Source: Oscillospiraceae bacterium (GTDB lineage Bacteria; Bacillota; Clostridia; Oscillospirales; CAG-382). From it: a DNA stretch of 64,000 bases. The DNA lies in the NCBI GenBank assembly GCA_022508745.1, contig JAFLUP010000001.1, positions 3,912 through 67,911 of the forward strand. Reading direction: 5' to 3'. Below are positions 2,573 to 56,837 of this stretch, in pieces (position 1 is the stretch's first letter; each line of letters starts with the position of its first letter). The notes beneath the pieces are model-generated. The model was not told the origin of the DNA. It saw nothing but the letters and a program-made list of their open reading frames with translations, and did no database searches. Both the position numbers and the translations under genes were made by a program.

Positions 2573-4906
2573 TTACTTGATCGTGTAGGTGCCCAGCACG
2601 TGGCGCTTGACGTACAGGTAATCGAAGGAGTTGATCTTGCCGTCATGGTTCACGTCCGCGGCTGCCGACTGCTCTGGCGTCAGCGCCGCGGTGCCGAGGC
2701 AGTACCGCTTGAGGTGCAGGTAGTCCAGCGCGTCGATTTTGCCATTTCCGTTGATGTCGCCGAGCTTGTGGGCGTTCTTTTCATTGATGTAGGTATAGGT
2801 GATCGTGACGTCGCCTTTCACGGTCAGCAGCGTCTCCTCCCTGACGGGGATCATGCCGTCGATGGCCTTTGCGGGAACGAACATCTGCGAGCCGACGGCG
2901 GCGGTGAATTGGTAGGACGCCAGTTCCTTTCCGTCCGCGCCCTTGCAGACCACGGAGACGGTGGCGGCGTTTTTCTTATCGTATTTCGCGAACAGGTAGT
3001 CCCGCACGTATTCCGACCAGAGGGTGTGTCCCTTGACGGATTGGTGGATGCCGTCCCCCGGATTCAGGAACTCTCTCATGTTCTCATCCCGGGTTTCCGC
3101 GTAGATGTCGATGATGTCGCAGCCGTAGGCGACGGCAACCTGCCGCATGGCTTCGCAGAAGTCCTTCATGTTGCCGTAGGCGTAGTCCAGCCCGTACGCG
3201 CCGGATGTATAGTAGCCGTCCCCGTTGTATGCGTCATGGGGGCAGATGAAGATCACGTCGGTGCCGATCTTCTGCAGCTCGGTGACAAAGTAAGTCAGGT
3301 TGGCGGTGTAGGTCTCCAGGGAGATATTCGGACGTTTCGAGGAGAGCACCTGCGCCTGATCGTTCATGCCAAAGCAGATGAGGGCGATGTCCGGCTTGTG
3401 GACCAGTACATCCCGCTCAAAGCGATCCCTGCCATTGACGGTGCTGTCCCCGCCGACGCCGGCGTTGATGACCTCGGTGCCCACGTGGGCGCCCAGCATA
3501 TTGACCCAACCGCTGCGGGCGGTCAGGGAATCGCCGAAGGCGAGGACGGTCTTGTTCGCCAGAGAGCTGGTCAGGGATTCTTCGGAGACGCAGAAGAAGC
3601 GCTGATAGACGGGAACGGAGGTGCATTTGCCGTTTGCGCCGTTGGCATAGACGACCACCGTGTAGGCGTTTCCGACCTTCAGCAGGTTGGAGGAAACGGT
3701 GTAGCTGTTCGTGCTGACCTTCGTGGGCTTCACCACCGCCTCATTAAAAGGGTTCGGCGTGGAGCTGATGAGGGCAAAGGTGTAGTCCGTGGCGCCCTCC
3801 ACCGGAGTCCATTGGATGGTGACGTTGGATTTGACGATGCGCTCGTCGGAAGGGGAGGTGATGGTCGGGGTGGCGAGCTGTTCGCTGCCCGCATCTCCCA
3901 GAAGGATACAGGTTTTGCCGCTATCCGGTTGGTTCAGATTGATGATATGCTTGCCTTTGTTGTCCTGGTTTTCGTACAGCCACGCCTTGGTGCCCACGGA
4001 GCAGGCCTGCACGGCAGGGTCCGAGCCGGAGCCGCAGTCCATGATCACAAAGCCGTTGCGGGGCAGGACCGGATACTTCGGGCTGCCGGTGGCACGGTTC
4101 AGGTCGGTCGCGACGCAGACGTAGCAGTTCTGGGTCGCATCCCACGCGAACGCCAGCGAGCTCCACCACTCAAAGTTCCCGCCTCCGCTGACCACCGTAC
4201 CGTTGTCCGGCGTGAACAGGATGCAGTCGCCGTTTGCGTAATGCTTGGAGTTGACGTTCTCCGTGGTTTTGATCTGCATGGCGGCGGCCTGCTCCCAGGA
4301 GGCGACCGGATCATAAGCCGTTTTGCCTGCGTCCGGGGTGCCGATCTTGATGTAGGAATCGCTCACGAAGTCGTCTGCATACCAGAGTTTTCCGTTGGTC
4401 TGAATGGCGCCGCCGTACAGGTGGGTGTTATAGAGGTACGCCTTGGTGCCGATCGCAAGATTTTTCACGTACTCGTAGGAATCCTGGATGCGTTTGGTGA
4501 TGTAGTTGATCCCGCCGCTGGAGCTGTAATCGTTGCCGACGCAGATGCCGTAGGCGAAGCCGTATTTGGGGATCTGCATATCGGATTTATCAACATTCTG
4601 TGCGTTGACGTTCTTTTCTTTCAGGACAAAGCAGTTCTGGGATGCATCCCAATCGAAGATGTAGACGCACCACCATGCGAAGTTGCCCTTGTCCCCCAGC
4701 CTGCTCGTGTTAGAGCCGGAGATGATGATGGCGGAGCCCTCCGTGGAGTTCGAGGTGTTGATGTGGGTGATGATCAGCGTTTGATCGCTCGGCCCGTAGG
4801 CGGAAACGCTCGCCGGGAAGAGAGGCAGCAATGCTGCCGGCAGCATCGCCGCCAGCAGAAGAAGCGGCAGGGCTGCGCGAAGGAACCCTCTGCGTGTTCG
4901 TTGCAT
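2573..4906 (-). CDS. secreted dockerin-containing SGNH/GDSL-family esterase, multi-domain
   Basis: 777 aa with a signal peptide (LLLLAAMLPAALLPLFPASVSA). Two tandem copies of an unassigned domain (GNFAWW..WDASQNC and GNFEWW..WDATQNC) and an FN3-like module. SGNH blocks FGDSLT, GVGGDS, CFGMND, DGIH. C-terminal duplicated dockerin F-hands DINGNGKIDALDY and DVNHDGKINSFDY. Confidence 0.88.
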   Translation of the reverse strand: MQRTRRGFLRAALPLLLLAAMLPAALLPLFPASVSAYGPSDQTLIITHINTSNSTEGSAIIISGSNTSRLGDKGNFAWWCVYIFDWDASQNCFVLKEKNVNAQNVDKSDMQIPKYGFAYGICVGNDYSSSGGINYITKRIQDSYEYVKNLAIGTKAYLYNTHLYGGAIQTNGKLWYADDFVSDSYIKIGTPDAGKTAYDPVASWEQAAAMQIKTTENVNSKHYANGDCILFTPDNGTVVSGGGNFEWWSSLAFAWDATQNCYVCVATDLNRATGSPKYPVLPRNGFVIMDCGSGSDPAVQACSVGTKAWLYENQDNKGKHIINLNQPDSGKTCILLGDAGSEQLATPTITSPSDERIVKSNVTIQWTPVEGATDYTFALISSTPNPFNEAVVKPTKVSTNSYTVSSNLLKVGNAYTVVVYANGANGKCTSVPVYQRFFCVSEESLTSSLANKTVLAFGDSLTARSGWVNMLGAHVGTEVINAGVGGDSTVNGRDRFERDVLVHKPDIALICFGMNDQAQVLSSKRPNISLETYTANLTYFVTELQKIGTDVIFICPHDAYNGDGYYTSGAYGLDYAYGNMKDFCEAMRQVAVAYGCDIIDIYAETRDENMREFLNPGDGIHQSVKGHTLWSEYVRDYLFAKYDKKNAATVSVVCKGADGKELASYQFTAAVGSQMFVPAKAIDGMIPVREETLLTVKGDVTITYTYINEKNAHKLGDINGNGKIDALDYLHLKRYCLGTAALTPEQSAAADVNHDGKINSFDYLYVKRHVLGTYTIK

Positions 4907-29927: not shown

Positions 29928-31172
29928 ATGAAACTGACACCTACCGAGGGCATGCGGGATTATCTGCCCGGGGAAAATGCCGTCCGCGACCGGCTGCTGG
30001 AACGCATCCGCGAGGTCTACCGTGCCAACGGCTTCCGTTCCATCGAGACGCCGGCGGCGGAAAGTCTGGAGAATCTGGAAAACAGCGACGGCGGGGAGAA
30101 CCTTAAGCTGATCTACCGGCTGGAAAAGCGGGGGGATAAGCTGAAAAAAGCCATCGAGGCGGGGGATTTCGCCCATCTGTGCGATCTGGGTCTGCGCTAT
30201 GACCTGACCCTGCCCCTTTCCCGTTACTACGCGGCACACCGGAACGATCTGGAAACCCCCTTCAAGTGCATCCAGATCGGGCGGGTCTACCGCGCCGAGC
30301 GCCCCCAAAAGGGACGGCTGCGGGAGTTCGTGCAGTGCGACATCGACATCCTCGGCTCGGAGAGCATGGATTGCGAAGTGGAGCTGATCACCGTCACGGC
30401 GGAAGCGCTGCTGGCGGTGGGCATCGACGATTTCCGCGTCCGGGTGAACCACCGCGCGCTGCTGCGGAATCTGATCGTGGGGTGCGGCTTTGCGCCGGAA
30501 TCGGCGGATTCGGTGTGTATCACGGTGGATAAGGCGGATAAGATCGGCTTCGACGGCGTAAAGGCGGAGTTGTTGGATAAGGGGTTTGCCCCGGAAGCGG
30601 CGGAAAAGCTGACGGCGCTCCTGCAGGGAGGGCTGACGCTGGAAACGCTGGCGTCTTTCGGCAGTCAAGCGGAAGCGCAGCAAATTTCCGCGCTGTTGGA
30701 ACAGACCAACGCCCTTGCGGAGGGGAAGTACGAGGTAATCTTCGACGCCACGCTGGTGCGCGGACAGGGCTACTACACCGGAACGGTGTTCGAGATCGAA
30801 TGTCCCTCCTTCGGCGGCACGGTGGCAGGCGGCGGACGGTACGACAACCTGATCGGTAAGTTCAGCGGCGGCATCGTGCCGGCGGTGGGCTTCTCCATCG
30901 GGTTTGAGCGCATCTTTTCCGTGCTTTGGGAGCGGGGCGCGAGCTCGCGCGCGGAAAGCAAGCCGCGGGAGGTCCTGTTCTACGACGAAGGGCAGATCGC
31001 GGAGGCCATCCGCTATGCCCGCACCCTGCACGCCGATTTTGACGTGACATTGGTGCAAAAGAAGAAAAAAGTCGGCAAACAGCTCGCCCAAGCGGAAGCA
31101 CAGGGCTATCGCTATGCCGAATTTCTGGAAACGCGCGGGGAGCGCAAAGAATTGACCGTTACGAAAGATTGA
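29928..31172 (+). CDS. hisS: histidine--tRNA ligase
   Basis: 414 aa. GMRDYLP, YRAERPQKGRLREFVQCDIDILG, GGGRYDNLI, and a C-terminal anticodon-binding domain. Confidence 0.93.
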   Translation: MKLTPTEGMRDYLPGENAVRDRLLERIREVYRANGFRSIETPAAESLENLENSDGGENLKLIYRLEKRGDKLKKAIEAGDFAHLCDLGLRYDLTLPLSRYYAAHRNDLETPFKCIQIGRVYRAERPQKGRLREFVQCDIDILGSESMDCEVELITVTAEALLAVGIDDFRVRVNHRALLRNLIVGCGFAPESADSVCITVDKADKIGFDGVKAELLDKGFAPEAAEKLTALLQGGLTLETLASFGSQAEAQQISALLEQTNALAEGKYEVIFDATLVRGQGYYTGTVFEIECPSFGGTVAGGGRYDNLIGKFSGGIVPAVGFSIGFERIFSVLWERGASSRAESKPREVLFYDEGQIAEAIRYARTLHADFDVTLVQKKKKVGKQLAQAEAQGYRYAEFLETRGERKELTVTKD

Positions 31173-31192
31173 CCATTACGAAAGAAGGAAAT

Positions 31193-31301
31193 GTTTGAAA
31201 CCGACGCAGACTGAAAAGGGATGCGTCAGTCGTTCAAACTACATTTGTGCTTTGCTGCACAGCAAGGTGCAGCATTTTCCTGCGGAAAAACACCACAAAT
31301 G
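31193..31301 (+). ncRNA. candidate structured intercistronic element, copy A (hisS|aspS)
   Basis: Module 1: GTTTGAA(31193-31199)...TTCAAAC(31233-31239) encloses GACGCA/TGCGTC. Module 2: CATTTGTG(31242-31249)...CACAAATG(31294-31301) encloses hairpins TGCTGCAC/GTGCAGCA and TTTTCC/GGAAAA. A second copy lies at 42965-43070. Confidence 0.5.
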
Positions 31302-31325
31302 CCAATGAAAGGAATGACTGTTGTT

Positions 31326-33122
31326 ATGGCGGAATTACTGGGCGGAGAGCGCCGCACGCATCTTTGCGGCGAACTGCGGAATACCCACGTGGGCGAAGAA
31401 GTCTGCGTGATGGGATGGGTGCGCAAACGGAGAGATCTGGGCAACCTGCTGTTTGTTGATCTGCGGGATCGCAGCGGTGTGGTGCAGCTGGCATTTGACG
31501 ACGGCACCGATCCGGCGCTGTTCGAGAAGGCCTCCGGCGTGCGCAGCGAGTTCGTGCTGTCTGCGCGGGGGACCGTGCGGAAGCGCGCTTCCGTCAACGC
31601 GGAGCTTCCCACGGGAGAAGTGGAGATCTTTGTGACCTCGCTGAAGATCCTCGGGGAGAGCGAAACGCCCCCCTTTGAGATCACGGACGATTGCAAGACC
31701 GGGGAAGAACTTCGGCTGAAATACCGCTATCTGGATCTGCGCCGCCCGGTGCTGCAGCGGAATCTGCTGTTCCGCCATCGCGTCGCCAAAGTGACGCGGG
31801 ATTATTTTGACGAAAACGGATTTGTGGAGCTGGAAACGCCCATCCTGATCCGTTCCACGCCGGAGGGAGCGCGGGACTACCTCGTGCCCTCCCGTGTACA
31901 TCCCGGCTCCTTCTACGCGCTGCCCCAGTCCCCGCAGCTGTATAAGCAGCTTTCCATGGTGGCTGGCTTCGACCGGTACTTCCAGCTTGCCCGCTGCTTC
32001 CGTGACGAGGACCTGCGCGCCGACCGGCAGCCGGAATTCACCCAGATCGACTTGGAAATGAGCTTCGTGGACATGGAGGACGTGCTTTCCATCGCGGAAG
32101 GGTACATTCAGCGCCTGTTCCGGGAAACGCTGGGGGTGGAGATCCCCATGCCGCTGCCCCGGTATACTTACCGAGAAGTCATGGACCGGTTCGGTTCGGA
32201 CAAGCCGGATCTCCGCTTCGGCATGGAGATTCAGGATCTGTCCGACGCGGTGCGGGGCTGTTCGTTCGCGGTCTTTTCTCGCGCGTTGGAGGCGGGCGGC
32301 AGCGTGCGCGCCATCGTGCTGAAGGGCGCGGCGGAGAAGTTCACCCGCAAGGATATCGATAAATTGGTGGAATACGCAAAGGGCTGCGGAGCGGCCGGGG
32401 TCGCCTGGGTGCGCCGCGCAGAGCAGATGAGCTCTTCCTTTGCCAAATTCCTCACGGAAGAGGAATTGCAGAAGATCTACGACTGCGCGGACTGCGCGGA
32501 AGGGGATATCCTGCTTGCCATGGCGGATGCGGACACCGACCGTCTGTTGACCCAGTTGGGACAGCTCCGTCTGGAGGCGGCGAACCGTCTGGGCATCGAG
32601 CGCAAGGGCTTCTCCTTCCTCTGGGTGGTGGAATTCCCGTTCTTTGAATATGATCGCGAAAGCGGCGAATGGCTGGCGATGCACCACCCCTTCACGGCGG
32701 TGGTGGACGAGTGCCTGCCGTATCTGGAAACGGATAAAGGACGCGTCCGCGCCAAATGCTACGATCTGGTGCTCAACGGCATTGAACTTTCCTCCGGCTC
32801 CATCCGGATCACGGATCCGGTGCTGCAGGCGAAGATCTTCGAGCTGCTGGGCATTTCGGAAGAGGACGCCAAGGCGAAGTTCGGCTACTTGCTGGACGCC
32901 TTCCGCTACGGCGCACCCCCCCACGGCGGCATGGCGCTGGGACTTGACCGTCTGGTGATGCAGATGCTGGGCGCGGAAAGCCTGCGGGACGTGGTGGCGT
33001 TCCCGAAGGTGCAGAACGCCTCCGAGCTGATGACCGGCTGCCCGGCGGAGGTGCCGGAGCAGGCGCTGCGGGATCTGGGGCTCCTGAAAGAGGAGACGCT
33101 CCTGCAAAAGGAGAAGGAATAA
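31326..33122 (+). CDS. aspS: aspartate--tRNA ligase
   Basis: ATG 31326 (MAELLGGERRTHLCGELR) fits AspS N-termini. FYALPQSPQLYKQ, FRDEDLRADRQPEFTQID, GGMALGLDRLVM. The track start 31221 would read through the structured element. Confidence 0.95.
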   Translation: MAELLGGERRTHLCGELRNTHVGEEVCVMGWVRKRRDLGNLLFVDLRDRSGVVQLAFDDGTDPALFEKASGVRSEFVLSARGTVRKRASVNAELPTGEVEIFVTSLKILGESETPPFEITDDCKTGEELRLKYRYLDLRRPVLQRNLLFRHRVAKVTRDYFDENGFVELETPILIRSTPEGARDYLVPSRVHPGSFYALPQSPQLYKQLSMVAGFDRYFQLARCFRDEDLRADRQPEFTQIDLEMSFVDMEDVLSIAEGYIQRLFRETLGVEIPMPLPRYTYREVMDRFGSDKPDLRFGMEIQDLSDAVRGCSFAVFSRALEAGGSVRAIVLKGAAEKFTRKDIDKLVEYAKGCGAAGVAWVRRAEQMSSSFAKFLTEEELQKIYDCADCAEGDILLAMADADTDRLLTQLGQLRLEAANRLGIERKGFSFLWVVEFPFFEYDRESGEWLAMHHPFTAVVDECLPYLETDKGRVRAKCYDLVLNGIELSSGSIRITDPVLQAKIFELLGISEEDAKAKFGYLLDAFRYGAPPHGGMALGLDRLVMQMLGAESLRDVVAFPKVQNASELMTGCPAEVPEQALRDLGLLKEETLLQKEKE

Positions 33123-34844: not shown

Positions 34845-34865
34845 GCGAAAGGATGGGTATAAGCC

Positions 34866-41067: not shown

Positions 41068-42048
41068 ATGAACGAGGATATGGAACGCGATACAAACGAT
41101 ACAATCGAATACCTCGACTTGACGCCCGACGCGCATACGGAGGAAAAACCGGCGCGAAAGGCGAAACGGCCGACGCCGGAGGAACCGGATCTGGAGCAAC
41201 TGGCAAAGCAGATCCGCGAGGAGCTGGAGCGCGGAAGCGAGCAGGCCCCCCCGACGGAGAAAGCGCCGGAAGACGACGGCACGGCTCCGAAGAAGAACGC
41301 TGAAGAGGAGCAGCCCGAGGCGCAGTCCGAGGAGACGCCCGAGGGGCAGGAAACGCAGGAAGCACCGGAGGATACGCAGGAAGATCAGGCGGAAGCGCCG
41401 GAGGATCAGGCGGAAGAAACGTCGGAAGATAAGCCGGAAGATAAGCCGGAAGAAACGCCGGAGGAAGCCCGGACGCGCAAGTTCCGCGGGGTCTTCGAGT
41501 ATGTGGAGACCTTCTGTGTGGCGCTTGGGGTGATGATCCTGCTGTTCATGTTCGTATTCCGCTATGTTTCGGTGGACGGCGACTCCATGCTGCCCACGCT
41601 GCACGGCGGGAAGGCCTCCGATCACGCGGACCGGCTGATCATCTCCGATTTTCTGTATCATCCGAAGACCGGCGACGTGGTGGTCATCAGCACCGGCACG
41701 GGAGAGAAGCCGTTGATCAAACGGGTGATCGCCGCCGGCGGGCAGACCGTTCGCATCAATTTCAAGACCTGGGAAGTCTCCGTGGACGGCGTTAAGCTGC
41801 AGGAAGACTACATCTGGTACGTGGAAGGAAGACCGATGGAGGTCAGAGACATGGCTGCCATGTACGGGGTGGATGAAAACGGCGTTTGCGAGTTTACGGT
41901 CGGCGAAGACAAGGTCTTCGTCATGGGGGACAACCGCAACGATTCCAAGGACAGCCGCTTCCGGGAGATCGGAGAGCAGGACGTGGAGCACATTCTGGGG
42001 AAGGTGATCCTACGGCTGTTCCCGCTGCCGGAGTTTGGACCGGTATAG
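41068..42048 (+). CDS. lepB: signal peptidase I with long acidic N-terminal extension
   Basis: 326 aa. Catalytic Ser box GDSMLPTL, Lys box LIKRVIAAGG, and GDNRNDSKDSR. A ~140-aa Glu/Pro/Gln/Asp-rich segment precedes the TM helix. Confidence 0.87.
   Translation: MNEDMERDTNDTIEYLDLTPDAHTEEKPARKAKRPTPEEPDLEQLAKQIREELERGSEQAPPTEKAPEDDGTAPKKNAEEEQPEAQSEETPEGQETQEAPEDTQEDQAEAPEDQAEETSEDKPEDKPEETPEEARTRKFRGVFEYVETFCVALGVMILLFMFVFRYVSVDGDSMLPTLHGGKASDHADRLIISDFLYHPKTGDVVVISTGTGEKPLIKRVIAAGGQTVRINFKTWEVSVDGVKLQEDYIWYVEGRPMEVRDMAAMYGVDENGVCEFTVGEDKVFVMGDNRNDSKDSRFREIGEQDVEHILGKVILRLFPLPEFGPV
41411..41458 (+). repeat. in-frame 12-nt tandem repeat (4 units) inside lepB
   Basis: CGGAAGAAACGT CGGAAGATAAGC CGGAAGATAAGC CGGAAGAAACGC, encoding ..EETS EDKP EDKP EETP.. 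Related longer repeats (GATCAGGCGGAAG) lie just upstream. Confidence 0.85.
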
Positions 42049-42118: not shown

Positions 42119-42964
42119 ATGGATCGGGAGATCGTCTGGTACCCCGGACACATGAATCGCGCACGGCGCAAGATCAAGGAAAGTCTGCCGCTGGTGGATC
42201 TGGTGATCGAGCTGCTGGATGCCCGCGCGCCGCTCTCCAGCCGCAATCCCTCCTTTGCGGAGCTGTTCGCCGGAAAGCCCAGCCTGACGCTGCTGACCAA
42301 GTGCAGTCTGGCGGATCGGAACGCGGTCAGCAAGTACGTCAACCTGCTCAAAGGGGAAAACCGCATGGTGCTTCCCATCGACTGCAAAGAAGGCATGGGC
42401 ATCAAGAAAGTCGCCCCTGCCATTCGGGAGCTGATGGCGGAAAAACTGGCAAGATATGAAGCAAAGGGCATGAAAAAGCCTCTCCGCGCCATGGTCGTCG
42501 GCATCACGAACGTGGGGAAATCCACCTTTATCAATACCTTCGCCGGGGCAAAGAAGGCCAAAGCGGAGGATCGTCCGGGCGTGACCCGGAGCAACCAGTG
42601 GATCGCCGTCCCCGCCATGGGGGTGGAGCTGCTGGATACGCCCGGTTTGCTCTGGCATAAGTTTGAGGACCAGACGGTGGCACGCAAGCTGGCCATCCTC
42701 GGTTCCATTCGGGATGAAATTCTCGACCAAATTGAGCTTTCCTGCGCGATGCTGGGGATGCTGCGGGTGAAATACCCTACTTTGTTGACTGCCCGCTACA
42801 AGGTGGAATGGACGGACGAGGATTCGGATTACGACCTGTTTGAAAAGATCGCGCGGAAGCGGGGATGGATCCGCTCCGGCGGCGTGATAGACGAGGATCG
42901 TACCGCCTCCGTGCTGCTGGACGAGTTCCGCGCCGGAACCATCGGGCAGATCACGCTGGATTGA
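42119..42964 (+). CDS. rbgA: ribosome biogenesis GTPase YlqF/RbgA
   Basis: ATG 42119 follows AAAGGAGAGG. WYPGHM N-terminus. Circularly permuted GTPase motifs (LTKCSLAD, GITNVGKST, DTPG). Confidence 0.9.
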   Translation: MDREIVWYPGHMNRARRKIKESLPLVDLVIELLDARAPLSSRNPSFAELFAGKPSLTLLTKCSLADRNAVSKYVNLLKGENRMVLPIDCKEGMGIKKVAPAIRELMAEKLARYEAKGMKKPLRAMVVGITNVGKSTFINTFAGAKKAKAEDRPGVTRSNQWIAVPAMGVELLDTPGLLWHKFEDQTVARKLAILGSIRDEILDQIELSCAMLGMLRVKYPTLLTARYKVEWTDEDSDYDLFEKIARKRGWIRSGGVIDEDRTASVLLDEFRAGTIGQITLD

Positions 42965-43070
42965 TTTGAAAATCACGAAAGCGAAAGTGATTACGATCGT
43001 GTTTTCAAATCCCATTTGTGCCGTGAAGCGCAAGGCGCTTCATTTTCCTGAAGGAAAAACGTCACAAATG
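42965..43070 (+). ncRNA. candidate structured intercistronic element, copy B (rbgA|rnhB)
   Basis: Module 1: TTTGAAAA(42965-42972)...TTTTCAAA(43002-43009) encloses TCAC/GTGA. Module 2: CATTTGTG(43013-43020)...CACAAATG(43063-43070) encloses TGAAGCGC/GCGCTTCA and TTTTCC/GGAAAA. Confidence 0.5.
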
Positions 43071-43093
43071 TAAAGGAGGGGATTGTCATTACC

Positions 43094-43711
43094 ATGGCAA
43101 ACGCATTGGATTGGGTCGTCGAGGACGGCTTCCGCACGGACGCGCTGCAGGTGTTCTGCGGTTGTGACGAGGCGGGGCGCGGCCCTTTGGCGGGGCCCGT
43201 GTACGCCGCGGCGGTGATTCTGCCGCGGGATTTTTTACCGGCAGATCTCAACGATTCCAAAAAACTCTCTCCTGCAAAACGGGAGAAGTTATATGAGGAA
43301 ATCCGCGCCCACGCGCTGGATTTTGCCATCGCTCGCGCCGAAGTGGAGGAGATCGAGCGGATCGATATTCTCAACGCCGCCATGCTTGCCATGCGTCGGG
43401 CGGTCGCCGGTCTGAAGCAGATGCCGGACGGTGCGCTCGTCGACGGACCCATCGCAAGGGAGTTCCCGCTGCCCGCGTTTCCCGTGGTGGGCGGGGACGG
43501 AAAGTGCCCCTCCATCGCGGCGGCGTCCATTTTGGCAAAAGTGGAACGGGACCGGGACTGCATGGAGCTGGATCGGCTCTACCCGCAGTACGGCTTTGCC
43601 TCCCATAAGGGGTACGCCACCAAAGCGCATCGGGAGGCCATTCTGCGCTACGGACCCTGTCCGGCGCACCGGCGCAGCTTTCTGCGCAAGCTGTTGGGAG
43701 AACAGCCGTGA
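43094..43711 (+). CDS. rnhB: ribonuclease HII
   Basis: 205 aa. GCDEAGRGPLAGPV, DSKKLS, and a GDGKCPSIAAASILAK region. Confidence 0.93.
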   Translation: MANALDWVVEDGFRTDALQVFCGCDEAGRGPLAGPVYAAAVILPRDFLPADLNDSKKLSPAKREKLYEEIRAHALDFAIARAEVEEIERIDILNAAMLAMRRAVAGLKQMPDGALVDGPIAREFPLPAFPVVGGDGKCPSIAAASILAKVERDRDCMELDRLYPQYGFASHKGYATKAHREAILRYGPCPAHRRSFLRKLLGEQP

Positions 43712-44142
43712 AGAGCGGGGAAGTCGGGCGGCTGGGAGAGCGCTTGGCGGAAGTGTACCTGGAAAAACAGGGCGTCCGTATTCTGGCGCGGAACTACAGC
43801 GTCCACGGCGGCGAGATCGATCTGATCGGCTTTTGCCGCGGCGGTCTCTTGTATATCGAAGTCAAAACCCGCACCGGGGAAAGCTGGGGAAGCGCGGCGG
43901 AGGCCATCCATCGGGAAAAGCTCCGGCGCATCGAGCGGGCGGCGAAGGAATTCGCCCGCGCGCACGTTTCCGGCGGCAAGGTGCCGGTTTTCTATGGATT
44001 CGGGCTGCGTCTGCTCCGCCGGGTTCGCTACCAGCGGATCGACGGCGTGGAGGTCTACCTGCACGGGGACGGAAGCCTGCAAAAAATCAATCGAATCGAG
44101 GATATGGGTTATGAAATACGTCAGCACGCGCGGGAAGACTGA
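43708..44142 (+). CDS. YraN-family (UPF0102) endonuclease-like protein
   Basis: 144 aa. GTGA overlap with rnhB. GERLAEVYLEKQG..GEIDLIG..IEVKTR. The 3' end overlaps thrC by 32 nt. Confidence 0.8.
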   Translation: MKSGEVGRLGERLAEVYLEKQGVRILARNYSVHGGEIDLIGFCRGGLLYIEVKTRTGESWGSAAEAIHREKLRRIERAAKEFARAHVSGGKVPVFYGFGLRLLRRVRYQRIDGVEVYLHGDGSLQKINRIEDMGYEIRQHARED

Positions 44143-45927: not shown

Positions 45928-46641
45928 ATGTCTGTTTTCGCCATTGCGGATCTGCATTTGGCGCACACCATGAATAAGCCGATGGATATTTTCGGTCCGC
46001 GCTGGGAAAACCATACGGAGAAGCTGCGCGAAAATTGGCTGGAAACGGTGTCCGACGGCGACACGGTGGTCATCGCGGGAGATGTTTCCTGGGGCATGCG
46101 CATCGAGGAAGCGGAGGAAGATTTCCGTTTTCTGGAATCCCTGCCGGGGCGCAAGCTGATCTTGAAGGGCAACCACGATTACTGGTGGCAGACCATGAAG
46201 AAGTTGCAGGAATTTCGCGACCGCGTGGGCGCGTTTTCGGTGGATTTCCTGTTCAACAACGCCTACGAGGCGGAGGAGTTCATCCTTTGCGGCACGCGGG
46301 GATGGACGCTGGATACCGTTTACAACGAGGAGGACGCGAAGATCGTCAACCGGGAAACGGAACGGCTGCGCACCTCCATCCGCGCAGGGGAAAGCCTGCG
46401 GGAGAATCATCCGGAGAAGGAGCTGCTGGTGTTCCTGCATTATCCGCCCGCCTACGGGAACCTGCGCTGCCGTCCCATCTGTGATCTGCTGCATGAAAGC
46501 GGCGTCAAGCGGATCTTCTACGGGCATATGCACAATGCCGATCCGTCCCGACTGGTCCGGCAGATCGCCGGCGCGTCCTCGGAGCTGATCGCGGCGGACT
46601 ACTTGCAGTTCCGCCCGCTGAAAATCCAACCGATGAATTGA
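45928..46641 (+). CDS. metallophosphoesterase
   Basis: ATG 45928 lies 8 nt after GGAAGGAG. Motifs ADLHL, GDVSWG, GNHDYWW, LHYPP, GHMH. Confidence 0.85.
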   Translation: MSVFAIADLHLAHTMNKPMDIFGPRWENHTEKLRENWLETVSDGDTVVIAGDVSWGMRIEEAEEDFRFLESLPGRKLILKGNHDYWWQTMKKLQEFRDRVGAFSVDFLFNNAYEAEEFILCGTRGWTLDTVYNEEDAKIVNRETERLRTSIRAGESLRENHPEKELLVFLHYPPAYGNLRCRPICDLLHESGVKRIFYGHMHNADPSRLVRQIAGASSELIAADYLQFRPLKIQPMN

Positions 46642-46658
46642 CACAAACATACAAGAAT

Positions 46659-46733
46659 AGACCGTTTTTCGACCTTTTGCATATACTGCTTTTGAAACAA
46701 AAGCAGGCAAAAGGGAAAGGAACGGTCTTTTTT
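46659..46733 (+). terminator. long terminator-like hairpin + T6 abutting the start codon and containing the SD of the trans-sulfuration gene (candidate attenuator)
   Basis: Stems 46660-46666/46721-46727 (7 bp), 46673-46680/46707-46714 (8 bp) and 46686-46694/46698-46706 (9 bp, AAA loop), then TTTTTT 46728-46733 and ATG 46734. The SD AAGGGAAAGGAA lies in the 3' arm. Confidence 0.65.
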
Positions 46734-47852
46734 ATGCAGCATTTTGAAACTATGGCGGCACACGGGGCGGGAAGCGCCCGGTATGAGGGTGCGGTCAGTG
46801 TGCCGATCTTCCAGACGTCCACCTATTCCGGCAGCGAGCAGTTCTCCTACAGCCGGTGTGACAACCCCACCCGCCGGGAATTGGAGAAAACCGCGGCGCT
46901 GTTAGAGAACGGAGCGCACGGATTTGCCTTTTCTTCCGGACTTGCGGCCATCAGCGCGGTATTTTCGCTGCTGCGGCAGGGAGATCGGGTGCTGGTATCC
47001 GACGACCTGTACGGCGGTACATATCGGTTGATTCAGCAGATCTGGTCCGGCTTCGGGATCACCTTCGCCTTTGCCGACCTGCGGGATCCGGCGGTGGTGG
47101 AGAGAGAACTGCAAATCCCCACGCGGATGGTCTTCGCGGAAACTCCCACCAACCCCATGATGAAGGTGCTGCCCATCCGCGTGTTGGCGGAGCTTGCGAA
47201 GGCACGAGGCGCGATTTTCGCGGTGGATAACACCTTTTTGACCCCGTATTACCAGCGCCCTCTGGCGTTGGGGGCAGATATAGTCATCCATTCCGGCACG
47301 AAATTCCTCTCCGGGCACCATGATACCAGCTGCGGGCTGGTGATCGTAGGGGACCGCCCCGAGCTGGCGGAGCGCATGGCGCTGATCCAGCGGACGCTGG
47401 GGAACGCGCTTTCCCCCTTCGATAGCTGGCTGACTCTGCGGGGGATACAGACCCTTCCGCTCCGCATGGAAAAGCACAGCCGGAACGCGCTTGCGGTGGC
47501 GAAGTATCTGGAATCGCACCCCCGCGTGGAACGGGTGAATTATCCCGGTTTGCCTTCCCACCCGCAGCATGACCTGATGCGGGAGCAGACCACGGGAACG
47601 GGCGGGGTGCTGTCTTTTTCGCTGAAAGACGACCGGGTGGAAAGCGTGCTGCGCGGCGGGAAGCTGATCCGCTTTGCGGAAAGCCTCGGCGGGACGACCT
47701 CGCTGATCACCTATCCCCAGACCCAGACCCACGCCTCCATCCCCGCCGAGCTGCGGGAGAAGATCGGCATCACGCCCCGCCTGCTGCGCCTTTCGGTGGG
47801 GCTGGAACACACGGATGACCTGTTAGGAGATCTGGAGCGGATGTTAAAATGA
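46734..47852 (+). CDS. PLP-dependent trans-sulfuration enzyme (cystathionine beta-lyase/gamma-synthase family)
   Basis: Start at MQHFETMAAHGAG. AVSVPIFQTSTY. PLP lysine in HSGTKFLSGHHD. Confidence 0.88.
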   Translation: MQHFETMAAHGAGSARYEGAVSVPIFQTSTYSGSEQFSYSRCDNPTRRELEKTAALLENGAHGFAFSSGLAAISAVFSLLRQGDRVLVSDDLYGGTYRLIQQIWSGFGITFAFADLRDPAVVERELQIPTRMVFAETPTNPMMKVLPIRVLAELAKARGAIFAVDNTFLTPYYQRPLALGADIVIHSGTKFLSGHHDTSCGLVIVGDRPELAERMALIQRTLGNALSPFDSWLTLRGIQTLPLRMEKHSRNALAVAKYLESHPRVERVNYPGLPSHPQHDLMREQTTGTGGVLSFSLKDDRVESVLRGGKLIRFAESLGGTTSLITYPQTQTHASIPAELREKIGITPRLLRLSVGLEHTDDLLGDLERMLK

Positions 47853-47940: not shown

Positions 47941-49047
47941 TTATCGTGCATATTCGTTCAGTGATTCAATAACTTTTATAAATCTTTCGTTGTCACGAAT
48001 CCTATCATATCTTGTGTTTTTTAATCTGTCAAGCATATGATAGCACTGCGAATGTTCCTTCAATTCGTGAAAATCTTTGTTGGGGAAGGGATATACCAAT
48101 TTATCAGTAAATATTGAGCTGTAACCCTTCCCGTGATTTTCATTATAGGAACGGTCATACCCTACAGCGTGAATGCACATCTTCTCAAGCGAATCGAGAG
48201 CATCGTTCGCTTTTCCTTGCGAGATCTGGTACGTTGAAATGAGCCAATAATTAGATGCAAGCCTACAGTGATAAAACATAAGATCATCACCGTATATCAT
48301 CTGATAAAGCTTGTTTGAAGTGATCAACATCTCAATTTTCTTGTCCCATGTCGACGGATCGTTCGGGAGATTTTCCGCTAACGGGTAATTTGAGATTGCT
48401 ATACCTAAACAATCCGTCAGCTTGTCAATCTCGTCTTGAATATAAAATTCATCTTTGCCGTCACCGATCCCCGATGATAGCGCAAACTCACGGCAATACT
48501 TTATGGGAGCGAGCAAATTTATAGCTTTTAAGGCTTTGTCACTCTGTTTCGTGTTCCCATAGATGTTTACCAATAGATTGATTGCGTTATATCGTGTGCC
48601 CTCGTCATTACACTCGTCAATCACAGATAAGCATAAGTTCTCGATCTCGCTCAATAGAGACTTTTCATTCGTGTCTTTCCATAAATGGTATAAACATACC
48701 GCGAGATTTTCCTTGATCGCATGATCCGACGGATATTTTGATATAGCGTTTCTCGCGAAAGCAATACGCTCTTCGATCGTACCGACCTCGCCAAGACGTG
48801 ACATCTCTTTCTTTATGTTGGCAATTTCATTTTCCCGCTCCGAAAGCTTGTATCCGAGGAGCTCATCGGTGCTCACATTAAAAAAGTCAGCAAGCGACGG
48901 CAAAAGCTCAATGTCGGGATATCCGTTTTCTGATTCCCAACGAGATATCGCCTGTGGTGTAACGCCAATCGCCGTAGCAAGAGTATCTTGTGTTACCTTC
49001 TTTTCTATTCTTAATTTCTTTATGTTCATACCGATCTTTACATTCAT
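47941..49047 (-). CDS. XRE-family HTH transcriptional regulator with C-terminal helical-repeat (TPR-like) domain
   Basis: 368 aa. HTH LRIEKKVTQDTLATAIGVTPQAISRWESENGYP. The gene is ~35% GC in a ~60% GC background. Confidence 0.8.
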   Translation of the reverse strand: MNVKIGMNIKKLRIEKKVTQDTLATAIGVTPQAISRWESENGYPDIELLPSLADFFNVSTDELLGYKLSERENEIANIKKEMSRLGEVGTIEERIAFARNAISKYPSDHAIKENLAVCLYHLWKDTNEKSLLSEIENLCLSVIDECNDEGTRYNAINLLVNIYGNTKQSDKALKAINLLAPIKYCREFALSSGIGDGKDEFYIQDEIDKLTDCLGIAISNYPLAENLPNDPSTWDKKIEMLITSNKLYQMIYGDDLMFYHCRLASNYWLISTYQISQGKANDALDSLEKMCIHAVGYDRSYNENHGKGYSSIFTDKLVYPFPNKDFHELKEHSQCYHMLDRLKNTRYDRIRDNERFIKVIESLNEYAR

Positions 49048-49090
49048 TGTTCTATCTCCTAAAAAATGATTTTTGTAAGCTTACGGTTTT

Positions 49091-49118
49091 ATTATACCAT
49101 TTTCTAAAAAAGAATCAA
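49091..49118 (-). promoter_or_regulatory. sigma-A-type promoter for the HTH-TPR regulator
   Basis: Minus strand reads TTGATT-16 nt-TATAAT with an extended -10 (TGGTATAAT). AGGAG lies 8 nt before ATG 49047. Confidence 0.55.
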
Positions 49119-49180
49119 TCATCAATCGCTTGTGAACTTTATAAACGAATGGTTTATAAGCCGTCAAAGAAGAATATGAA

Positions 49181-49192
49181 AAAGAGGTGCCC
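49181..49192 (+). repeat. 12-nt direct repeat AAAGAGGTGCCC, right copy
   Basis: Exact 12-mer identical to 47887-47898. The two copies bracket the low-GC segment. Confidence 0.7.
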
Positions 49193-49300
49193 CTCGGAGA
49201 GCGTAATGCGCTTTTGATGGCCGTAAGGTTGTCAAAAGTGCTTTTGTGTTATTATTGGAAAGAGTAACAGACACCTGATACACATGCAAGGGAACAAAAA

Positions 49301-49327
49301 ACGGCATAGCCGTTATGACTATGCCGT
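49301..49327 (-). terminator. intrinsic terminator of the nifS-thiI-thioesterase operon
   Basis: ACGGCATAG / CTATGCCGT 9-bp stem. On the minus strand it is followed by TTTTTTG. Confidence 0.75.
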
Positions 49328-49370
49328 AATTCCTTATGTGAAGGGAACGAAAAAACGTTCCCTTTTCCTG

Positions 49371-49784
49371 TTACCCTTTGAAAACTTCCGTAAATTTCGC
49401 GTGCAGATCCGGGTAGTTGTGCCGCAAGATGATGGGTTTCATCTCTTTGTCCACAAAACAGTGAGTGGTAAATCCGGTGCTGCAAAGCTCGCCGTCTTTG
49501 AGCACTTCGTACTCGAATTTCATACGCACGCCCGTGTAAAGCGCGGGCTTCACCACTACCAGAAAGCGATCCTCGAAGTGCAGCAGGCGGAGATACTTTG
49601 CGTAGGCGTCCACGTTGGGAATGATGATGCCGATGTTCTCCAACTCCTGCGTGCTGAGGTTCATCTGTCGCATGAGATCCATCCGCGCTTCCTCAAAGTA
49701 CCGCAGATAGTTGGAATGATGGGCGATGCCCATTTGATCGGTCTCGTAATAGTTAACTTGACGTTCGTAGGGTTTGATTTGCAT
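49371..49784 (-). CDS. acyl-CoA thioesterase (4HBT/YbgC-like hotdog fold)
   Basis: Start at MQIKPY (RBS AAGGAAAAGAGG). VNYYETDQMGIAHHSNY motif. Confidence 0.85.
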   Translation of the reverse strand: MQIKPYERQVNYYETDQMGIAHHSNYLRYFEEARMDLMRQMNLSTQELENIGIIIPNVDAYAKYLRLLHFEDRFLVVVKPALYTGVRMKFEYEVLKDGELCSTGFTTHCFVDKEMKPIILRHNYPDLHAKFTEVFKG

Positions 49785-55062: not shown

Positions 55063-55467
55063 ATGAACAGATTGTATTCGATTTTCAGGCTGTTGGACGA
55101 CGGGGCGGGAGAATCAGCGGGCGCGCTTTCCCTGCTTCCCATGATCGCCATGATCGTGGTATTGGTGGTGGTGTTTTACTTCTTCCTGTACCGTCCGCAG
55201 AAAAAGCAGGAGCGCGAGACGACCGCTATGCGCAACTCCATCGAGCTGGGGGACGTGATCTCCACGGTGGGCGGTCTGATAGGCGTAGTCGTTCGCATCA
55301 AGGATGAGATGCTGCTGATCGAGACCGGCGCGGATCGCACCCGTTTGCAGGTGATGAAATGGGCGGTGCGCGGCATCGAGGAAAAGGCGCATCCGGTAGC
55401 GGAAACGGAGAAGAGCGGCACCAAGGCCGTGGAGAAATCTTCGGAAAAGCCGAAGCTGAAAAAATAG
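55063..55467 (+). CDS. yajC: preprotein translocase subunit YajC
   Basis: 134 aa. TM helix, then YRPQKKQ...LGDVISTVGGLIGVV. Confidence 0.85.
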   Translation: MNRLYSIFRLLDDGAGESAGALSLLPMIAMIVVLVVVFYFFLYRPQKKQERETTAMRNSIELGDVISTVGGLIGVVVRIKDEMLLIETGADRTRLQVMKWAVRGIEEKAHPVAETEKSGTKAVEKSSEKPKLKK

Positions 55468-55482
55468 GAGCTGACGAGGAGT

Positions 55483-55523
55483 AAGCATACAGGGAATCCC
55501 ACATAGGTATTCTTTGTATGCTT
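55483..55523 (+). terminator. stem-loop after yajC (possible terminator)
   Basis: AAGCATACA...TGTATGCTT 9-bp stem with a 23-nt loop, followed by CTTGCTT. Confidence 0.35.
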
Positions 55524-55610
55524 CTTGCTTATCGCGATTGATCGCGAGGGGATCCATCGGTCCTTGCCTCGGGGGCAGGGGCAAACAGGAAGAAAGGAAG
55601 GGACTTTTCC

Positions 55611-56837
55611 ATGAACAAAACTATGCAAAGAAAGTACGCGCGTCTTTTGGTACGCGCGGGGGTCAATATCCAGAAGGGACAGACGTTGATCGTCCGCGCC
55701 CAGACGGAAAGCTACCCGTTCATCGAACTGCTGACGGACGAGGCTTACAAGGCGGGCGCCGGCGACGTACAGATCGAATGGAGCAACCAGACGCTCAGCC
55801 GTCTGCACTATCGTCACCGCAGCGTCACAGCGCTCTCCCGGGTGCATCCGTGGGAGGAAGCGAAGATGAAGGAGGAGTCCGAGCAGCTTCCTGCCGCCAT
55901 CCGCCTGGTATCGGAGGATCCGGACGGACTGCGCGGCATCAATCAGGAAAAACTTAAGAAGGTGCGGCAGAAGCGCTACCCCATCCTGCGCCCCTATCAG
56001 GAGCAAATGGAGAACAAATACCAGTGGCTGGTGGCAGCCATTCCGGGCAAGGCGTGGGCGAAGAAGATGTTCCCCGGTCTGCGCACCTCCGCCGCGGTGG
56101 AGAAGCTCTGGGAAGCTATTTTTGAAGCCTGCCTTGTCACCAAGGACAACGATCCCGTCGCCGCATGGGAGGAAAAGGACCGGCTGATGGAGGAAAAGAG
56201 CCGCGTGCTCAACGCTTGCCGGTTCGATTATCTGGAGTACAAGAACGCCCTCGGCACGGATTTCCGCTGCCATTTGATGCCCCGTTCCCTTTGGTGCGCA
56301 GGCGGCGAAAAGACGTTGGGCGGCGTGTTCTTCAACCCGAATATGCCCACCGAGGAGGTCTTTACCACTCCCATGAAGGGCAAGTGCGAGGGACGGCTGG
56401 TGGCTTCCATGCCGCTTTCCTATCAGGGCGTGCTGATCGAGGGGTTCTATATCGACTACAAGGACGGCAAAGCTGTCGCGTGGGACGCAAAGGTGGGCAA
56501 AGAAGCGCTGGACGGCATCCTGCAATCCGACGAAGGCGCGAAGATGCTGGGCGAACTGGCACTGGTGCCGGTGAACTCTCCCATCAGCCGGCAGGGATTG
56601 CTGTACTACTGCACCCTGTTCGACGAGAACGCCAGCTGTCACGTTGCCATCGGACGGGGATACACCAACTGCGTCGAGGGCTTTGAGGACATGACTCGGG
56701 AGGAGCTGCTTGACATGGGGGTCAACGACTCCCAAGTACACGTGGACTTCATGATCGGAACGCCGGATCTGACCATCACCGGCTGGAAAGACGGAAAAGC
56801 AACGCCGGTCTTTGTGAACGGCGATTGGGCAATATAG
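55611..56837 (+). CDS. M29-family aminopeptidase (AmpS/PepS-like)
   Basis: 408 aa. N-terminus KYARLLVRAGVNIQKGQ, plus EEVFTTP and VHVDFMIG. Confidence 0.87.
   Translation: MNKTMQRKYARLLVRAGVNIQKGQTLIVRAQTESYPFIELLTDEAYKAGAGDVQIEWSNQTLSRLHYRHRSVTALSRVHPWEEAKMKEESEQLPAAIRLVSEDPDGLRGINQEKLKKVRQKRYPILRPYQEQMENKYQWLVAAIPGKAWAKKMFPGLRTSAAVEKLWEAIFEACLVTKDNDPVAAWEEKDRLMEEKSRVLNACRFDYLEYKNALGTDFRCHLMPRSLWCAGGEKTLGGVFFNPNMPTEEVFTTPMKGKCEGRLVASMPLSYQGVLIEGFYIDYKDGKAVAWDAKVGKEALDGILQSDEGAKMLGELALVPVNSPISRQGLLYYCTLFDENASCHVAIGRGYTNCVEGFEDMTREELLDMGVNDSQVHVDFMIGTPDLTITGWKDGKATPVFVNGDWAI

Follow-up and report, generated by a model that had tools for sequence, protein, structure and literature searches.

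A structured repeat that ends at start codons and carries a Shine-Dalgarno sequence: a probable family of portable ribosome-binding-site cassettes in uncultured Oscillospiraceae-like bacteria

The stretch of 64,000 nucleotides analysed here (contig JAFLUP010000001.1 of the Oscillospiraceae bacterium assembly GCA_022508745.1, positions 3,912–67,911 of the forward strand; hereafter, the window) contains two copies of a structured intergenic element: copy A in the hisS-aspS spacer and copy B in the rbgA-rnhB spacer. We consider it fairly probable that copy B is a member of a previously undescribed family of non-autonomous, AT-rich, non-coding structured repeats, which can be described as "portable ribosome-binding-site cassettes". 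Judged from the sequences, the element is dispensable; it is probably mobile DNA, and conserved regulation of rbgA-rnhB or hisS-aspS is not its likely role. The family was found at seven independent loci (eight sequences) in two groups of uncultured Oscillospiraceae-like bacteria of gut or rumen type. Copies A, B, B′ and C are referred to as the window type, and copies D, E, F and G as the SIG617 type.

Copy B occupies the whole of the 129-nt spacer between rbgA and rnhB, together with its tail. Its first base is 42965 (TTTGAAAA), immediately 3′ of the rbgA stop codon; near the other end, the 3′ arm CACAAATG of its closing helix P1 is followed by a single T, by AAAGGAGGGG with the Shine-Dalgarno (SD) sequence, and by the ATG of rnhB. 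The parts of copy B are as follows.

42962–42964, + strand: rbgA stop codon TGA, abutting copy B (TAG or TAA in the empty alleles of close relatives)
42964–43010, + strand: module 1, a long imperfect hairpin with the conserved outer stem (A/G)TTTGAAAA...TTTTCAAA(T/C)
43013–43070, + strand: module 2, a three-way junction
43013–43020 with 43063–43070, + strand: helix P1, CATTTGTG with CACAAATG
43024–43042, + strand: hairpin P2, TGAAGCGC-AAG-GCGCTTCA
43043–43058, + strand: hairpin P3, TTTTCC-TGAA-GGAAAA
43059–43062, + strand: linker J3/1, ACGT
43071–43093, + strand: tail TAAAGGAGGGGATTGTCATTACC, with the SD at 43072–43081, preceding rnhB
43094–43711, + strand: rnhB (RNase HII); copy B has its 3′ junction at the ATG of this gene (43094)

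Copy A spans 31193–31325 in the hisS-aspS spacer of 153 nt and has the same layout. Module 1 begins at 31193, after the hisS TGA (31170–31172) and 20 further nucleotides, and the gap between CACAAATG (31294–31301) and the aspS ATG is 24 nt, as compared with 23 nt in copy B.

31180–31192, + strand: remnant of the native aspS SD (GAAAGAAGGAAAT) 5′ of copy A (empty alleles carry GGAAGGAAGTTGCATAT or ...GGGAAAGGAAGCATAGAAAAT directly before the ATG)
31193–31239, + strand: module 1 hairpin (GTTTGAAAC...GTTCAAAC)
31242–31301, + strand: three-way junction, with P1 formed by 31242–31249 and 31294–31301
31253–31274, + strand: P2, TGCTGCAC-AGCAAG-GTGCAGCA
31275–31289, + strand: P3, TTTTCC-TGC-GGAAAA
31302–31325, + strand: tail CCAATGAAAGGAATGACTGTTGTT, with the SD GAAAGG, before the aspS ATG at 31326

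An earlier note on this DNA had described copy B as starting directly after the rbgA stop codon, ending against the rnhB SD and filling the intercistronic space, and copy A as sharing its 3′ spacing (24 against 23 nt) and as sitting 20 nt behind the hisS stop; all of these positions were confirmed, 129 of the 129 nt being occupied in the case of copy B. The identities of YlqF/RbgA, RNase HII, HisS and AspS were supported by NCBIfam scores above the curated cut-offs, and independent gene calls on identical ENA contigs pick the same start codons for the downstream genes. When copy B was compared with the window by blastn, copy A was the sole match (76% over 70 nt, E 3e-7). A covariance model run on the 64-kb window gave 128.7 bits for copy A and 137.5 bits for copy B, the next best match having 19 bits. 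The note had also named folding energies no better than those of shuffled controls as a point that would speak against it; the z-scores are −5.3 for copy B and −4.9 for copy A, and none of 200 shuffles folds equally well.

The further copies were reached by several routes. Copies D and E were found on two contigs of the metagenome-assembled genome "Oscillospiraceae bacterium SIG617" by an unbiased pattern scan using one genome per species, which returned 14 loci, the other 12 being chance matches without the 5′ arm; the two copies are 94% identical over 137 nt. Copy C was detected with the covariance model (72.7 bits) in the relative L029, whose RnhB is 90% identical, and lies between an ABC-2 membrane gene and an auxiliary gene. 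Copies F and G were reached via a protein-database search with translations of the element, which led to two proteins with spurious N-terminal extensions. The downstream genes encode AspS, RnhB, an ABC auxiliary protein, a TM1266 hydrogenase regulator, a small membrane protein, a LysM protein (copy F) and an unknown protein (copy G); they are mutually unrelated and do not form a functionally coherent set. At all seven loci, the copy is co-oriented with the downstream gene and its 3′ end lies at the ATG of that gene. Both window copies are on the + strand, which is G-rich throughout and was taken as the leading strand, and gene orientation and replication orientation of the copies are inseparable in these data. 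The genes that follow copies D and F are each the first of their transcription unit. As a separate observation, a canonical intrinsic terminator (GCGTTCCTTCGGCGAAGGAACGC + TTTTTT) occurs 5′ of copy D on the minus strand of L001 (about 3110–3150), approximately 16 nt before the native SD of the TM1266-hydE-hydG operon, and suggests that an attenuator or a riboswitch-type leader may lie ahead of this operon.

The element is composed, in this order, of a hairpin module, a three-way junction (P1/P2/P3) and an SD-containing tail, and its length is about 115–137 nt. Module 1 is an imperfect hairpin of about 47 nt with the conserved outer stem (G/A)TTTGAAA(A)...(T)TTTCAAA(C/T), the interior of which differs among the copies yet remains paired. 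Module 2 begins 2 nt past module 1 and is closed by P1 (CATTTGTG with CACAAATG). P2 varies from allele to allele (TGCTGCAC/GTGCAGCA in copy A; for copy B, TGAAGCGC/GCGCTTCA in the window and TGATGCAC/GTGCATCA in L028) and is missing altogether from copy C. P3 has the consensus TTTTCC-N3-4-GGAAAA, and J3/1 is a 4-nt linker, ACNN. The tail, with the consensus YAAAGAAAGGMATGGTYATWAYY, is 23–26 nt long, includes the SD and stops at the ATG.

This secondary structure is supported by the alignment of the eight sequences: 93.4% of the cells are paired, as compared with 30–51% when the partners are slid. Compensatory double changes were found at five pairs, three of them in P2, and the covariation score exceeded that of 500 of 500 shuffles. 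P1 is sequence-invariant except for two G-U wobbles and one mismatch, and the only departure in P3 is that its closing pair is a C·A mismatch in copies F and G; because of this invariance, these two helices show no covariation. The window-type copies fold as modelled, with helix probabilities of about 0.6–1.0; in copies A, B and C, the junction is the minimum free energy (MFE) structure and the probability of P1 is 0.89–1.0. The G+C content of the element (38–45%) is far from that of the genome (58.9%), and its composition looks foreign. No consistent open reading frame (ORF) was found, since the reading frames disagree between the copies; the element was therefore judged to be non-coding, and a small ORF or leader peptide was rejected on the same grounds.

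The clearest information on the nature of the element was obtained from orthologous spacers in relatives, for which public contigs carrying RnhB or AspS homologues at graded identity were used. Filled and empty alleles were found at three sites.

Site B, rbgA-rnhB: filled in the window and identical contigs and in L028 (129 nt); empty (11–16 nt) in L026/L027, L029, L030, L031, L034, L042 and L043
Site A, hisS-aspS: filled in the window (153 nt); empty in L034/L035 (17 nt) and L036/L037 (26 nt)
Site C, ABC-2 membrane gene and ABC auxiliary gene: filled in L029 (115 nt); empty (16–45 nt) in the window, L026, L031, L034, L036, L042 and L043
Site C in the window, 34845–34865, + strand: empty spacer of 21 nt between the two ABC genes

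The empty alleles thus come from seven related contigs at site B, from four contigs of two relatives at site A and from seven contigs at site C, and vertical conservation was seen at none of the three sites. Between L028 (filled) and L026 (empty), the rnhB genes show 5 differences in 618 nt, all synonymous (99.2% identity), so the element is polymorphic for presence and absence within a species-level cluster. Since close relatives lack it, the element is dispensable. The earlier note had named orthologous spacers without the element, combined with unchanged expression, as refuting its reading; as far as the sequence side is concerned, such spacers exist, and the element is an insertion. At site C, L042 has an unrelated 45-nt spacer (1667–1711) with its own hairpin and T-run (AATCCGGGTCGTGAAACGCTTCGGATTTT); this spacer apparently receives other small structured inserts too.

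A comparison of the two filled alleles of site B showed that the window and L028 copies differ at 9 of 129 positions, and that 7 of these, including two compensatory pairs, fall in the 17-nt core of P2 (window 43022–43042, L028 164–184). Outside P2, only 2 of 112 positions differ, as compared with a divergence of 14.4% at the 4-fold sites of rnhB. P2 is a hypervariable or converted hairpin within a strongly conserved scaffold. In the same pair of sequences, the first 111 nt of the gene after rnhB (L028 850–963, window 43708–43818) are 99.1% identical, while rnhB itself is 92.9% identical, a contrast that indicates mosaic recombination between the lineages.

The junctions were then scrutinized at the seven loci. 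The 3′ junction is always the ATG, while the 5′ junction is variable. Three features of the tail are relevant here. One is that the tail measures 23–26 nt at all seven loci, and a GAAAGG-type SD lies 13 nt 5′ of the ATG in seven of the eight sequences. Another is that the 23-nt tails of the SIG617 type are the same in copies E and F and one base off in copies D and G, ahead of four unrelated genes and up to the ATG. The last is that the tail of copy B is homologous to the others, 15 of 23 positions matching copy E. Near-identical tails before different genes indicate that the tail, the SD and the register belong to the element. The earlier note had taken the fixed register as an argument for function as opposed to random placement, and had named a variable SD distance in other copies as refuting. 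The register proved to be general, all copies being in the sense orientation and ending at the ATG, so that placement is far from random, and the distance varied little. The register is not, however, that of an element aligned to a host SD: the SD and its spacing are part of the repeat, and the register is fixed for that reason.

On the 5′ side, two situations were found. In copies A, D, E, F and G, the native SD and 2–6 nt are retained 5′ of GTTTGAAA (the sequences ending at the junction are GAAGGAAAT, GGAGGATATA, GAAGGAGAA, GAAAGGATACAA and GAGGTATGAA), and the flank at site A resembles the SD of the empty alleles. Copies B and C directly follow the upstream stop codon, with no native SD left. 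At site B, the stop codon is TGA in both filled alleles and TAG or TAA in the closest empty ones, and part of the rbgA TGA may have arrived with copy B. No fixed target motif was recognized in the 5′ flanks of the seven loci (AAAT, ATTG, TGAG, TATA, AGAA, ACAA and TGAA), and guide-like complementarity between element and flanks did not exceed that of shuffled sequences. Models with a target-site duplication of ATG or ATGA fit copies A and C and fail for copies B, D, E, F and G. The predicted accessibility of the SD in 310-nt contexts is 0.13–0.75 for filled alleles and 0.01–0.98 for empty ones; the two ranges overlap fully, with no systematic shift.

Based on these structures, the following course of events is proposed. 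Insertion would place the 3′ end of the element at a start codon in the sense orientation; the native SD would be displaced upstream (A, D, E, F and G) or lost (B and C); and the downstream gene would be translated from the SD in the tail. An SD supplied by the element would explain survival inside operons and before the essential gene aspS. In RNA of the window type (A, B, B′ and C), two self-contained modules are predicted and the SD would be largely free, so that the element would act as a structurally insulated, portable intercistronic spacer plus ribosome-binding site (RBS), not as a sensor. We infer that mobility is provided in trans, by an enzyme that would recognize the invariant stems, and that the effect on expression would be neutral to mildly modulatory. 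Insertion at the start codon with later loss of the redundant native spacer is a plausible course for sites B and C, although the spacer may also have been exchanged for the element in a single event.

Several points weigh against the cassette reading. The known family consists of seven loci only, and, while five of them were found by an orientation-neutral search, the other two were ascertained in a way that forced the sense orientation. No terminal inverted repeats (TIRs) exist, for the 5′ end (GTTTGAAA...) pairs inside module 1 and the SD tail at the 3′ end is unpaired; nor was a target-site duplication (TSD) found in the filled alleles as compared with the empty ones at the three sites. 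The element has taken the place of the native spacer at sites B and C and does not merely interrupt it, which plain cut-and-paste insertion leaves unexplained. Neither a mobilising enzyme nor a longer parent element was seen in the 64 kb and the short pieces of the relatives. The distance of 13 nt between the SD and the ATG is long, which makes efficient translation from the tail uncertain. For copies E, F and G, three of the four of the SIG617 type, the full-length MFE structure is an alternative fold in which the tail is paired, 3–10 kcal/mol below the junction; the junction with a free SD is thus not a uniform prediction. Finally, the low divergence outside P2 may reflect either purifying selection, and with it a host-relevant function, or recent transfer or gene conversion.

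The irregular junctions can be read in a more specific way, which we put forward tentatively and regard as rather doubtful. The element may be a mobile unit aimed at translation-initiation regions, in which a "stop - structured spacer - SD" cassette takes over from the native spacer with its SD and, in part, even from the upstream stop codon. Since the 3′ junction is precise while the 5′ junction varies and target DNA is deleted, this would suggest unconventional integration, for example through an RNA or single-stranded DNA intermediate primed or annealed at the ATG or by a site-directed recombinase, and P1/P3 might then be a shared operator.

That the element is a mobile cis-regulatory operator is the strongest of the rival explanations, and we think it unlikely. 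The surface formed by P1, P3 and J3/1 beside the SD would bind a trans-acting factor (an RNA-binding protein or a small RNA) and so wire unrelated genes into a regulon. P1 and P3 are indeed invariant across lineages with genomes of 59% and about 45% G+C, whereas compensated changes occur in P2 and in the interior of module 1; the scarcity of differences outside P2 between the window and L028 copies points the same way, and the distance between the junction and the SD region is always 1–4 nt. Invariant stems would, however, be expected just as much if a transposase or recombinase recognized them. The reading is also weakened by the lack of a candidate factor, by the dispensability of the element at the three loci with comparable relatives, and by the absence of functional coherence among the downstream genes.

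An intercistronic processing site or stabiliser is improbable in our estimation. RNase III or an enzyme like it would cleave the hairpin of module 1, of about 20 bp; the upstream mRNA would keep a 3′ hairpin, and the downstream mRNA would keep a 5′-proximal junction as protection against 5′-exonuclease. The placement between cistrons, the long imperfect hairpin and the stable junction directly 5′ of the SD are consistent with this. Phage T7 has intercistronic RNase III sites, which serve as a precedent. So do the ERIC and Correia elements, which are processed by RNase E and RNase III (PMC3049150). On the other hand, the uncoupling of two cistrons is irrelevant for copies D and F at the head of their transcription units, and the sequence marks no cleavage site.

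A bistable translational switch is very improbable. While still nascent, the RNA would adopt the junction and leave the SD free; once complete, it could change its fold, the tail (AAGGCAUGG) then being paired with GUGCCUU, the 5′ strand of P1 plus J1/2, and the SD hidden, as in a thermosensor or a kinetic timer. The SIG617-type transcript ending at the P1 3′ arm does fold into the junction (D, E and F) while the full element prefers the SD-paired alternative by 2–10 kcal/mol, and a CYUU motif occurs in J1/2 of six of the eight copies. The behaviour is not conserved, however, as copies A, B and C keep the junction described above; bistability is therefore a prediction for one subfamily only. 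The SD accessibilities of near-identical copies, moreover, are spread over 0.13–0.75. A related pairing, which the earlier note had thought conceivable but weak, joins the AUUUUCC arm of P3 to the SD; it has a probability of at most 0.0002 in both window copies, that arm being taken by P3. Least credible of all is a weak intrinsic terminator or attenuator made of the P2 hairpin with UUUUCC or of the inner hairpin of module 1 with UGUUUUC: the consensus scan flagged P2+TTTTCC in copy A and the module 1 inner hairpin in copy F and nothing in copy B, the U-runs are just 4 nt and lie inside conserved helices, P2 is missing from copy C, and the element lies ahead of the essential aspS within an operon.

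The copies were also compared with known families and classes. In Rfam 15, nothing reached the gathering threshold in the whole window, and scanning copies A, B and E by E-value brought up nothing beyond noise below the threshold; a match of CRISPR-DR33 to copy B (window 43002–43038) scored 24.3 bits against a gathering threshold of 39, was not reproduced in A or E and was set aside as a chance match. ARAGORN detected no tRNA-like element, blastn gave no matches in phage and plasmid collections, and three pattern scans of IMG/VR were empty or returned chance matches only. A pattern scan of JGI/ENA metagenomes gave eight loci and no true copy, L021 being merely a loosely similar small junction. 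Weak matches of the covariance model at 46640–46736 and 55483–55613 of the window (18–19 bits) were judged to be non-homologous. The second of these, an 18-bit match, falls in a region of about 160 nt (window 55440–55610) 5′ of the ORF at 55611, which has several hairpins (AAGCATACA...TGTATGCTT; ATCGCGATTGATCGCGA) and may be another structured leader.

A riboswitch or gene-specific leader was rejected in view of the unrelated downstream genes and the empty orthologous sites, although covariation, mostly in P2, is present. A conserved promoter in module 1 was likewise rejected: TTGAAA-N18-TAAGAT is confined to D and E and was not flagged in A, B or F, and scans of the copies revealed no conserved sigma-70 consensus. 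The element shares with miniature inverted-repeat transposable elements (MITEs) that it is short, non-coding and multi-copy, three of its seven loci being polymorphic; the TIR and TSD tests failed, and this class was rejected. So was REP/REPIN, for the copies contain neither a palindrome of about 20–40 nt with a conserved GTAG-type head nor an inverted doublet, and so were the IS200/IS605-derived PATEs, for no fixed tetra- or pentanucleotide is present on the 5′ side and the native spacer is lost at B and C. The only class definition that the element satisfies is the operational one of putative mobile promoters (at least 80% identity over at least 50 nt before non-homologous genes of one genome); it applies to D/E, while A/B, with 76% over 70 nt, fall below its cut-off.

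The likenesses to these and other systems are nevertheless informative. The pneumococcal BOX, RUP and SPRITE elements are also shorter than 200 bp, AT-rich relative to the host, non-coding, strongly folded when transcribed, modular with a dispensable middle (boxB, comparable to P2), confined to a few related species and co-transcribed with their neighbours (PMC3049150). This is a likeness by description, sequence similarity not being expected, and there are differences: BOX and RUP have TIRs or TSDs, the three families are enriched 3′ of genes and between convergent genes with only a weak orientation bias, and neither a position against start codons nor the provision of an SD is reported for any of them. 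ERIC and Correia (CREE) elements are intergenic, transcribed hairpin repeats that alter the mRNA processing, stability or expression of neighbours and show insertion polymorphism among strains. They are, however, long near-perfect palindromes with TIRs, found in either orientation in Proteobacteria, with a TA duplication in the case of Correia, whereas the present element has no TIRs or TSDs, is strictly in the sense orientation and combines a three-way junction with an SD tail. REP/REPIN sequences, mobilised by RAYT, are short, non-autonomous, extragenic hairpin repeats that occur in operons and have conserved stems presumably recognized by an enzyme; unlike the present element, they have a GTAG head and inverted doublets, and REPs are usually located 3′ of genes (PMC3116915).

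Putative mobile promoters are closely similar DNA segments directly before non-homologous genes of one genome, mostly with no Rfam match, but the class is defined on the region from −150 to −50 and promoters are assumed (PMC3575422; Matus-Garcia et al. NAR 2012); the present element reaches the ATG, carries an SD, is often inside an operon and has no conserved promoter. The PeSL cassettes of T4-type phages likewise place a short intergenic stem-loop with expression signals before many unrelated genes, and they are inserted, deleted or replaced between relatives. PeSLs are phage promoter and terminator units and recombination substrates (PMC2839356), whereas the present element is chromosomal, has a three-way junction and an SD, and shows neither a conserved promoter nor a convincing terminator. 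The PATEs resemble it in their sub-terminal hairpins, lack of TIRs and TSDs and strand-specific orientation, but their insertion sites lie 3′ of a fixed tetra- or pentanucleotide and the target DNA is kept, while the flanks vary here and the spacer is lost at two sites. The strict sense orientation, the 3′ end at the start codon, the SD carried by the element and the three-way junction with invariant stems set it apart from all of these elements.

Two further observations were made in the window. An AT-rich island at about 48000–49600 (38–47% G+C against 59%) contains, on the minus strand, a gene for a 367-aa HTH_3 (Cro/C1-type) protein; the gene is missing from the orthologous position in L029, L030 and L031 and is therefore probably a separate insertion. 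Within the S26 signal-peptidase gene, a 12-nt periodic repeat (GCCGGAAGA...-type) is present at 41364–41465 in six copies that overlap, and the predicted length of this protein varies widely, from 233 to 388 aa, among the relatives.

The element also has consequences for annotation. Since the frame is open through some copies, gene callers produce N-terminal extensions: in the window, the frame is open through copy A (31221–31325) and extends the aspS ORF to 633 aa, and the public gene calls P0241 and P0242 (L038 5672, L039 2890) start from a TTG inside GTTTGAAAAC and make use of the displaced native SD, with 39 and 44 spurious residues added. As for the biology of the family, bacterial small interspersed repeats are usually tolerated 3′ of genes. 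A family that settles at start codons in the sense orientation and supplies the RBS of essential genes such as aspS would, if the cassette reading is true, represent an unusual way for selfish DNA to persist in compact operons, and the element would be a natural portable "insulated RBS" part. If the invariant junction binds a factor, regulons might grow by means of mobile RNA operators. The pair of L028 (filled) and L026 (empty) is a natural experiment already at hand.

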